Sequence record: PQ474795.1
Strand: one strand, 5' to 3'
Source of the DNA: Escherichia phage vB_Eco_AMO_3701M
Length of the DNA: 45,294 bases
Positions 38,580 through 39,093 of the stretch are shown one piece after another. The first letter of the stretch is position 1, and each line of letters begins with the position of its first letter. A program made the translations under genes and the position numbers. Under the pieces are notes generated by a model that did not search any database, was not told where the DNA came from, and was given only the letters and a program-made list of their open reading frames with translations.

Positions 38580-38611
38580 TTCTTTAATCTCCTTAATTGT
38601 TTCCCGCAATC

Positions 38612-38640
38612 GAGTATACATTGCGAATAATGGGAAATCA
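38612..38640 (-). promoter_or_regulatory. sigma70-like promoter TTGATT-N17-TATACT overlapped by palindrome
   Basis: Minus strand; -10 at 38612-38617, -35 at 38635-38640; inverted repeat cgcaat/attgcg flanks the -10. Confidence 0.5.
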
Positions 38641-38655
38641 AACATAATCACACCT

Positions 38656-38684
38656 ATTGACATTATGAAAATCTTCGTTTAAGG
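38656..38684 (+). promoter_or_regulatory. sigma70-like promoter TTGACA-N17-TAAGGT
   Basis: Same -10 variant (TAAG-T) as promoter 6357; no ORF downstream before terminator at 38928. Confidence 0.45.
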
Positions 38685-38689
38685 TGCTT

Positions 38690-38955
38690 CTATATCTTAG
38701 TTACTTTGATTCCTGTTCACCTTGTAATACCGCTTAAACGCAGACGTGCGTCAACGCAAAGTGTTAAGCGGCAGACTTACTGAACATTCTAGAATTATTG
38801 TAACTTTCCTTCCTAAGTATCTCCGGTTGCCCTGGGCAAGCTCTATTCTCATCGGCCGCATATATCTTAAGTACCTGATTTTCTTAAAGTGCCGTAGATT
38901 CGCAACCGTAAAAATGTAACGATTATTGGGCAGGCTTAGGGCCTGCCCTTTAGTT
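38690..38955 (+). ncRNA. putative non-coding transcript
   Basis: Promoter-to-terminator interval without ATG-initiated ORF; internal inverted repeats ccgcttaa / ttaagcgg; speculative. Confidence 0.2.
38928..38955 (+). terminator. rho-independent terminator
   Basis: stem gggcaggc / gcctgccc, loop ttagg, then TTTAGTT. Confidence 0.6.
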
Positions 38956-39030
38956 ACCAAGTAATAAGAATAAAGGCACAACCCTACCTGAAGAATCACA
39001 ACGGCAACGTAACCATTTTCAATGAATCTC

Positions 39031-39059
39031 TTGCACACCCCAACATAATAGGATACTAT
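39031..39059 (+). promoter_or_regulatory. promoter TTGCAC-N17-TACTAT overlapped by dyad AATAG-N4-CTATT
   Basis: -35 at 39031-39036, -10 at 39054-39059; same architecture as 41159-41187. Confidence 0.45.
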
Positions 39060-39093
39060 TCACTTATCGAAACGAGACATAAGGAATTCAGAA

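Follow-up and report, generated by a model that had tools for sequence, protein, structure and literature searches.

A predicted two-copy family of structured non-coding RNAs upstream of the rightward gene blocks of Guernseyvirinae phages

What does a virulent phage keep in the stretch of DNA where its two gene blocks part? The question is raised by the 45,294-nt sequence of Escherichia phage vB_Eco_AMO_3701M (PQ474795.1), here called the window, in which a 513-bp gap separates a leftward block on its left from a long rightward block that starts at position 39094 on its right. A preliminary description made from the letters alone had seen in this gap a structured control region resembling a replication origin and control cassette. 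The source phage was a virulent, Kagunavirus-like siphovirus of the subfamily Guernseyvirinae; the window matched the record of M01 (OR061069.1), an Escherichia phage also of the Guernseyvirinae, position by position, with substitutions in mosaic blocks and 0 indels, and its further relatives were Kagunaviruses (K1ind1 and Bas73) and the Salmonella Jerseyviruses.

The rightward block contained small early genes, the holin and endolysin, and the terminase, portal, head and tail genes. The leftward operon was ordered as an AlpA-like HTH_17 gene, a gene of 77 aa and a primase-helicase, and belonged to a T7-like replication module, which also includes a Gp2.5-like SSB and a family A polymerase. 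The AlpA-like label given earlier to the first gene was borne out by the HTH_17 match, while the winged-helix-like label given to the 77-aa gene found no Pfam match to rest on. For the third gene, earlier called an AEP primase-helicase, matches were found to AAA_25 and PHROG 3228 only, with no PDB relative by sequence; no AEP primase domain was among the Pfam, PHROG or PDB matches. Relative to K1ind1, the 77-aa gene and the primase-helicase were each split by a frameshift in the window.

Three promoters were recognized in or at the edges of the gap (Table 1). The minus-strand promoter proposed earlier for the leftward operon was recovered by scanning, and both of its hexamers were kept in 12 of 12 relatives that had been fetched by BLAST and not selected by motif; the record of PVP-SE2 annotates a promoter at the equivalent position. 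The inverted repeat around its -10, which had been taken for a palindromic operator, does exist in the window but was absent from the M01 record, from K1ind1 and from every Jerseyvirus compared, and it was rejected as a conserved operator because it was found only in this window. The divergent plus-strand promoter likewise proved to be present, with its 17-nt spacer, and conserved: in all relatives the -35 was invariant and the -10 read TAAGGT (Kagunavirus) or TAAGTT (Jerseyvirus). It had been missed by the consensus scan because of this weak -10, in which 3 of 6 positions match.

The third promoter, overlapped by a palindrome and located before the first rightward gene, was absent from the preliminary description. 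Its 18-nt motif had about 10 occurrences within the window (15 matches versus 3.2 expected), and promoter and palindrome together made up a 33-nt element with about 10 copies genome-wide. The same promoter consensus has been reported for such phages as PHIRE 'phage promoters' (PMC9825357). Clusters of GTAAC/GTTAC in the region were considered as protein-binding sites and rejected, since their density was equalled or surpassed elsewhere (up to 6 per 400 nt, at about 12 kb), and since in the paralogue described below the motif covaries as a helix (GUAAC/GUUAC versus CGAGC/GCUCG).

Table 1. Coordinates in the window of the features predicted at the gene-block junction and of the paralogous unit
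Feature	Position	Strand	Basis or remark
RNA-2, paralogous non-coding unit	6357-6600	+	Shared core motifs, promoter, covarying hairpin
AlpA-like small DNA-binding protein, 56 aa, gene 1 of the leftward replication operon	38410-38580	-	Pfam HTH_17, E = 2e-7; PHROG 66 'excisionase and transcriptional regulator'
Inverted repeat cgcaat/attgcg flanking the leftward -10	38606-38625 (arms 38606-38611 and 38620-38625)		Read from sequence
Sigma-70-type promoter TTGATT-N17-TATACT of the leftward operon (AlpA-like / 77-aa / primase-helicase)	38613-38641	-	Consensus scan, 9/12 matches
Rightward promoter TTGACA-N17-TAAGGT, for RNA-1	38657-38685 (-35 at 38657-38662, -10 at 38680-38685)	+	Read from sequence
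RNA-1, putative non-coding RNA about 265 nt long	38692-38956	+	Ends predicted from promoter and terminator
Domain I, rod-like hairpin of about 107 nt with helices P1-P5, conserved CCUU bulge and variable tip	38699-38805	+	Covariance model R1
Conserved C/U-rich single-stranded linker UUCCUUCCUAAGUAUCU	38806-38826	+	Unpaired in folds; nearly invariant
Small hairpin (38828-38838) and Domain II (38847-38898), with core motifs UCUAUU, AAGUNNCUGAU and GCCGUA	38828-38898	+	RNAalifold consensus
Intrinsic-terminator-like hairpin GGGCAGGC-UUA-GCCUGCCC with tail UUUAGUUAC	38928-38956 (hairpin 38928-38948)	+	Terminator scan
Post-terminator spacer, best-conserved stretch of the locus	38961-39030	+	Identity 95-97% to two of three Jerseyviruses compared, 80% to the third
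Third promoter TTGCAC-N17-TACTAT, overlapped by the palindrome AATAG-N4-CTATT	39031-39063 (promoter 39031-39059)	+	Precedes the first rightward gene at 39094

With the third promoter at 39031-39059, the unit that follows the rightward promoter, named RNA-1 here, is bracketed by two co-oriented promoters. The preliminary description had claimed a stretch of about 270 nt without an ATG ORF, and in 32 homologues no ORF was conserved in position or frame; one homologue was devoid of any ORF of at least 25 aa. Short hypothetical CDSs are annotated at the locus in several records, which disagree on strand, frame and extent. A protein-coding reading was rejected, since ORF strand, frame and length varied among close relatives, and the 95-aa CDS of the M01 record, at 38751-39038(-), had its reading frame disrupted by indels.

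The RNA-1 locus was kept in 447 phage records belonging to two genera. Identity over positions 38627-39013 was about 90% in Kagunavirus and 76-80% in Jerseyvirus. Between the window and the Jerseyviruses, identity was 65% for the primase-helicase gene, 66% for Domain I, 82-85% for the core and 87-94% for the terminator module. A search of the whole window against Rfam 15 returned no family at the gathering threshold, and permissive thresholds were also negative for RNA-1; the best sub-threshold hits concerned the terminator hairpin only (Hrs12, 21 bits versus 70 needed; sbrA, 19 versus 45).

The internal inverted repeats noticed earlier are real, and the strand that holds them folds well: the minimum free energy of RNA-1 was -75.4 kcal/mol, with z = -3.97 (about -4.0) relative to shuffled versions. 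Folds of clade representatives showed one common architecture in four parts, namely the Domain I rod, the C/U-rich linker, the small hairpin with Domain II, and the terminator. As plain MAFFT and RNAalifold gave a poor consensus for the 5' domain, a covariance model (R1) was built for Domain I from 12 Kagunavirus sequences. It found every Kagunavirus locus, with scores of 99-129 bits, and every Jerseyvirus locus, with 25-36 bits, in each case on the + strand; it did not detect the K1G, Bas70 and RP180 variants or RNA-2. In the resulting Domain I alignment (A3), which was fitted to the model and thus leans towards it, 97.9% of the cells were paired, compared with 82% in column shuffles and 19-44% when partners were slid by 1-3 columns, a large margin over both controls. 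Across Kagunavirus and Jerseyvirus, 16 of the 30 pairs of Domain I had undergone compensatory changes on both sides, and in P3 the insertion of a T in one strand was offset by that of an A in the other. Rows read on the + strand held about 48 G·U cells against about 7 A·C cells, which indicates that the folded molecule is the + strand. The 3' half of RNA-1 was too conserved to display much covariation; the few changes found there by RNAalifold were one-sided and pair-preserving, from A-U to G·U.

The hairpin at the predicted 3' end of RNA-1 had earlier been called a strong terminator (38928-38955). It is present, with 9 pairs of which 7 are G-C, and its stem was kept by compensatory changes, two pairs having the variants GGGCAGGU/ACCUGCCC and GGGCGGGC/GCCCGCCC; the T-tract of its tail (TTTAGTTACC) was only moderate. 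Other hairpin modules took its place in some relatives, and some Jerseyviruses had no RNA-1 terminator module. RNA-1 therefore has what is generally expected of a non-coding RNA gene, that is, its own conserved promoter and terminator, no conserved ORF and covariation on one strand, with the reservations that its -10 is weak (3/6), its T-tract moderate and its terminator module missing in those Jerseyviruses. In sum, the structured control region of the preliminary description survived as a conserved, ORF-less structured unit next to back-to-back divergent promoters.

A second unit of this kind, RNA-2, was found in the structural-gene part of the window. It does not appear in the preliminary description and lies far from the replication genes. 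Its core motifs were those of RNA-1 (UCUAUU ... AAGUNNCUG ... GCCGU), and the shared core pattern occurred exactly 2 times in the window versus 0.06 expected. RNA-2 was preceded by a promoter of the form TTGACT-N17 with an extended -10 (TGcTAAGCT), which had its own putative palindromic regulator site centred near -41.5, and consisted of a 5'-terminal hairpin, a long covarying hairpin and a hairpin at 6566-6585. Its covariation also showed G·U far above A·C on the + strand. Identity was 90-99% in 179 of the 180 matching phage records, in both genera, and no match was found in Rfam.

RNA-2 was located directly upstream of the spanin and capsid genes, with 25 nt between the end of its hairpin and the spanin start (6611). 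No promoter-like site was found between the two, and the operon upstream of RNA-2 was closed by a strong terminator at 6095-6115, which implies that the spanin and capsid genes are read through RNA-2. Judged by this layout, RNA-2 is the predicted leader of the spanin / scaffold / capsid operon.

The two units belong to a single mosaic family. In RP180- and Golestan-like phages, the slot on the AlpA side was occupied by a mosaic of an RNA-2-type 5' half and an RNA-1-type 3' half, and RNA-1 and RNA-2 were united in one family because such mosaics join their halves. At least four unrelated sequence types of the 5' domain shared one slot, and at least three of the 3' hairpin module, swapped at fixed junctions; PVP-SE2 had a divergent member of the family in the spanin slot. 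The reality of the RNA follows from its retention in 447 records, the lack of a conserved ORF, the covariation of Domain I and of the terminator, the excess of G·U and the high identity of the core and 3' half. The comparisons made here thus give good support to RNA-1 and RNA-2 as a new family of non-coding RNAs.

Among the collections searched, the family was found only in Guernseyvirinae. The 5,426 complete E. coli genomes contained neither similarity nor extended complementarity to it on either strand, and GTDB representative genomes had none except for one 6-kb contig, which is probably a mis-binned phage fragment. A search with a degenerate core motif returned Guernseyvirinae only, plus chance hits within coding regions. 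Metagenomes yielded 13 hits, of which 10 were on contigs of 38.6-44.8 kb, typical for these phages, and 3 on shorter ones. Within the phage genome, the best antisense target was the start region of the gene at 13993-14478, with 10-11 bp of pairing and -29 kcal/mol; it was rejected as probably due to chance, given that the RNA side differs in Jerseyviruses and the target is unchanged. No description of these RNAs was found in the literature, and the one Kagunavirus RNA-seq paper found deals with annotated genes only (PMC12645636).

As to function, we tentatively prefer to see the region as a hub of early control in a virulent phage of the Guernseyvirinae, and the RNA family as one that acts in cis as a leader. 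Host RNA polymerase would start leftward at 38641-38613 into the AlpA-like / primase-helicase operon, while the rightward start (38657-38685) would open not onto a gene but onto RNA-1, which would end at the hairpin with its short U-tail; the rightward protein genes would use their own promoter/operator at 39031-39063. The family would then be a structured leader in cis, heading both rightward transcription blocks. Its terminator-like hairpin would split transcription into a discrete stable RNA and read-through, and the conserved fold would control elongation or termination, or stabilise the read-through message.

Several observations point in this direction. Both copies are co-oriented with, and directly upstream of, long rightward blocks, and RNA-2 must be read through if the spanin and capsid are to be expressed. 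The hairpin tails are weak and alike (UUUAGUUAC, UUUACUUAUC, and UUAGCGUAU in PVP-SE2), and in the Jerseyviruses without the terminator module the RNA would run on towards the genes. In RNA-2 and in the RNA-1 of Jerseyviruses a hairpin lies within a few nt of the predicted 5' end, and 5'-proximal hairpins are a trait of known 5' stabilisers. On the other hand, a separate promoter stands between RNA-1 and the first gene, and read-through is unnecessary in the AlpA slot. The four or more unrelated types of 5' domain would not be expected if the RNA had to dock on an unchanging host partner, for instance RNA polymerase; the Bas73 record annotates no antiterminator-like protein; and the palindromic site at the RNA-2 promoter could set the timing of late genes by DNA binding alone.

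Known leaders offer partial parallels. The layout of an antitermination leader (promoter, leader, terminator and operon, with no intervening promoter) is that of RNA-2, whereas RNA-1 has the promoter at 39031-39059 in between. In phage lambda, the lysis and structural genes are directly preceded by the series PR'-6S RNA-tR', in which a strong promoter is followed by a short leader RNA and then a terminator. RNA-2 resembles it, with a constitutive-looking strong promoter, a short leader and a terminator before genes of the same classes, although a search revealed neither a Q-like gene nor a Q-binding element. The putL and putR elements of HK022 are two paralogous antiterminator RNAs of about 70 nt, with two stem-loops, that head two operons. 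Here too, two paralogous structured RNAs stand at the heads of two operons; unlike the put RNAs, they are 200-265 nt long and have variable 5' domains, and we infer their control of read-through.

That the gap would also be a replication origin, as the preliminary description had suggested, received no help from the usual sequence marks. Neither iterons nor tandem repeats were found in 35300-39300, where short matches were two-copy only and no array of three or more occurred, and there was no AT-rich unwinding element, the highest AT fraction in any 30-nt interval being 0.77. The cumulative GC skew had its minimum at 38-39 kb, where gene orientation switches; the skew agreed in sign with the gene strand throughout, the - block at 13-16 kb included, and flipped at the other strand switches. 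Since the skew follows gene orientation, it provides no evidence on replication here. Of the proposed origin and control cassette, the conserved control region, the divergent promoters and the structured ORF-less unit were upheld, but not the iterons or the AT-rich element of an origin.

The satellite phage P4 offers a comparison on this point, in that its AlpA/excisionase-type HTH gene and its alpha primase-helicase adjoin a small non-coding RNA locus, and the same three elements are side by side here. However, in P4 the CI RNA (Rfam C4 family) is part of the leader of the operon itself, with which it pairs, whereas RNA-1 points away from the operon and matched no Rfam family. P4 ori and crr contain repeated TGTTCACC iterons, whereas this octamer is single here, at 38716-38723, and was rejected as an iteron; it has an extra T in Jerseyviruses and is not conserved.

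An origin that does without such marks is conceivable, if improbable. In a transcription-primed origin of the type of lactococcal phage c2, T7 or ColE1, the transcript of the promoter at 38657-38685 would stay paired with the DNA as a lasting hybrid, within the unit or directly past it, the T7-like polymerase would extend this hybrid, the primase-helicase would load on the displaced strand, and RNA-2 would be a second origin. ColE1 RNA II and the T7 primary-origin promoters are cases of a promoter-driven, structured and untranslated transcript near replication functions that may serve as primer, but no antisense regulator, G/C hybrid-forming tracts or AT-rich zone were identified here. [quoted passage not shown] As far as architecture goes, all of those features that can be checked in silico recur in the present virulent siphovirus: a non-coding region at a divergent junction, with + strand promoters at 38657-38685 and 39031-39059; after the first promoter, neither an ORF nor a ribosome-binding site but a structured transcript; and unrelated types sharing one slot. 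The unit moreover adjoins the primase-helicase operon of the T7-like replication module, and the 95-97% conservation of the post-terminator spacer suggests an element acting at the DNA level. The likeness to c2 is one of architecture alone, as there is no sequence relation to c2 and the present host is Gram-negative; the c2 origin uses host proteins only, whereas the present phage carries a T7-like replisome and has a second copy as a late-operon leader. This paralogue, placed in the structural-gene block as the spanin leader and distant from replication genes, is hard to fit to an origin, as are the missing iterons and unwinding element and a skew that gene orientation accounts for.

Acting in trans, RNA-1 would be a free-standing RNA of the phage, whether a small RNA that works by base pairing or a decoy for proteins, produced early from a host-type promoter and directed at host or phage targets, with RNA-2 as its paralogue; paired small RNAs are exemplified by GlmY/GlmZ. 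Its own promoter and terminator, the absence of an ORF, the stable fold and the protected 5' end would suit such an RNA, as would two unpaired motifs that do not vary, namely the C/U-rich linker and the loop AAGUNNCUGAU. The phages exchange 5' domains and 3' modules within a single slot between conserved flanks, which is a pattern of accessory or counter-defence loci, and near-identity across genera suggests frequent horizontal exchange. We nevertheless regard a trans-acting role as doubtful: neither strand showed extended complementarity to any E. coli genome, the best phage target is probably fortuitous, RNA-2 runs directly into the spanin gene, and a subset of phages does without the terminator. 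Far less probable still is that the locus has no RNA function and consists of promoters, operators and recombination 'linker' DNA, or hides a small protein gene such as the CDS at 38751-39038(-). The locus is mosaic, with modules that swap at fixed junctions, and the hypothetical CDSs of several records would agree with this; yet these CDSs conflict with one another and are broken by indels, and neither linker nor coding DNA can explain why compensatory changes and insertions keep the helices down to 66% identity. These considerations place the cis-acting leader ahead of a c2-type origin transcript, and the latter ahead of a trans-acting small RNA.

A bolder reading, which we consider rather unlikely, is that the modular, two-copy structured RNA is itself the effector. 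It would either act without protein on host RNA polymerase, in a put-like manner with a new fold, and license read-through of both rightward operons, or be the primer transcript for the T7-like replisome at two origins.

The Guernseyvirinae (Kagunavirus and Jerseyvirus) are among the most often isolated candidates for phage therapy against E. coli and Salmonella (the collection searched contained over 450 of their genomes), and the locus and its paralogue were the most conserved non-coding sequences noticed in these genomes. In public records both units are left blank or bear inconsistent 'hypothetical proteins', which the definition of a covarying family would put right. Two promoters, two hairpins and one conserved core provide an experimental handle, and the family offers a route to how late genes are turned on, or replication begun, in a virulent phage that brings no RNA polymerase of its own.

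The window also contains RNA-2, a paralogue of the predicted structured non-coding transcript RNA-1 (38692-38956, +). It lies at 6357-6600 (+), where the same promoter, structured RNA and hairpin arrangement recurs with the spanin gene immediately downstream, and it was 90–99% conserved in 179 of the 180 matching records. In these records the RNA-2 locus is either blank or carries a small hypothetical protein. In public records both RNA loci bear "hypothetical protein" CDSs that contradict one another (Table) and are probably spurious.

The C/U-rich linker of RNA-1 (38803-38826) was complementary to 14462-14494 (-), where a HAD-like phosphatase gene has its ribosome-binding site and start, with a predicted energy of -29 to -33 kcal/mol. 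In the Salmonella-infecting Jerseyviruses, however, the linker side of this match was changed while the target side was identical, so that the match is probably due to chance and the phosphatase gene was not retained as a target.

The window matched the record of Escherichia phage M01 (OR061069.1) in length and coordinates, and comparison over positions 32400-45294 revealed 714 substitutions and no indels. The substitutions were clustered, divergent blocks alternating with identical ones, and the arms of helix P5, in the Domain I rod of RNA-1, were paired in the window and unpaired in M01. Within the leftward replication operon, the primase-helicase (35880-38122, -) was broken into two ORFs (539 and 210 aa), and the 77-aa gene (38181-38413, -) likewise into two that overlap (51 and 43 aa); because each is a single gene in relatives, these splits are attributed to frameshifts or sequencing errors. 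Beyond the RNA-1 terminator, two of three comparisons of E. coli phages with Salmonella phages gave 95–97% identity for the spacer at 38961-39030, whereas the primase genes of the same phages were only 65% identical. This spacer holds repeated AAGAAT...CACAAC / GGCAAC elements.

Copies of the phage-wide motif, and hypothetical protein CDSs annotated within the RNA loci
Feature	Record	Position	Strand
Motif copy	Window	4507-4524	-
Motif copy	Window	6257-6274	-
Motif copy	Window	16025-16042	-
Motif copy	Window	32381-32398	+
Motif copy	Window	35558-35575	+
Motif copy	Window	35602-35619	+
Motif copy	Window	39046-39063	+
Motif copy	Window	41174-41191	+
CDS	M01 record (window coordinates)	38751-39038	-
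CDS	Relative L039	37112-37432	-
CDS	Relative L039	5304-5414	+
CDS	Relative L082	36502-36621	-

A motif of about 33 nt, cTTGCACACCCCAAtATAATAGGGTACTATTCAC, recurs across the phage (Table). Its sequence reads as a sigma-70-like promoter with a -10 of TACTAT. The palindrome AATAG-N4-CTATT overlaps this -10 and resembles an operator for a dimeric regulator. PHIRE-based papers name this motif a "phage promoter", despite the absence of an RNA polymerase gene from these phages. A perfect palindrome with GAATAG half-sites, as in the motif, was found at 6343-6358 (AACTATTCGAATAGTT), directly adjoining the -35 of the RNA-2 promoter. Its centre falls at about -41.5, where a class II activator would bind, and GGAATActtTATTCC occupies the equivalent place in the relative PVP-SE2. 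Two motif copies, at 35558-35575 and 35602-35619, lie upstream of a small Cro/CI-type HTH_3 gene (35647-35862, +), encoded on the plus strand within the leftward replication operon. The product of this gene is a candidate motif-binding regulator.
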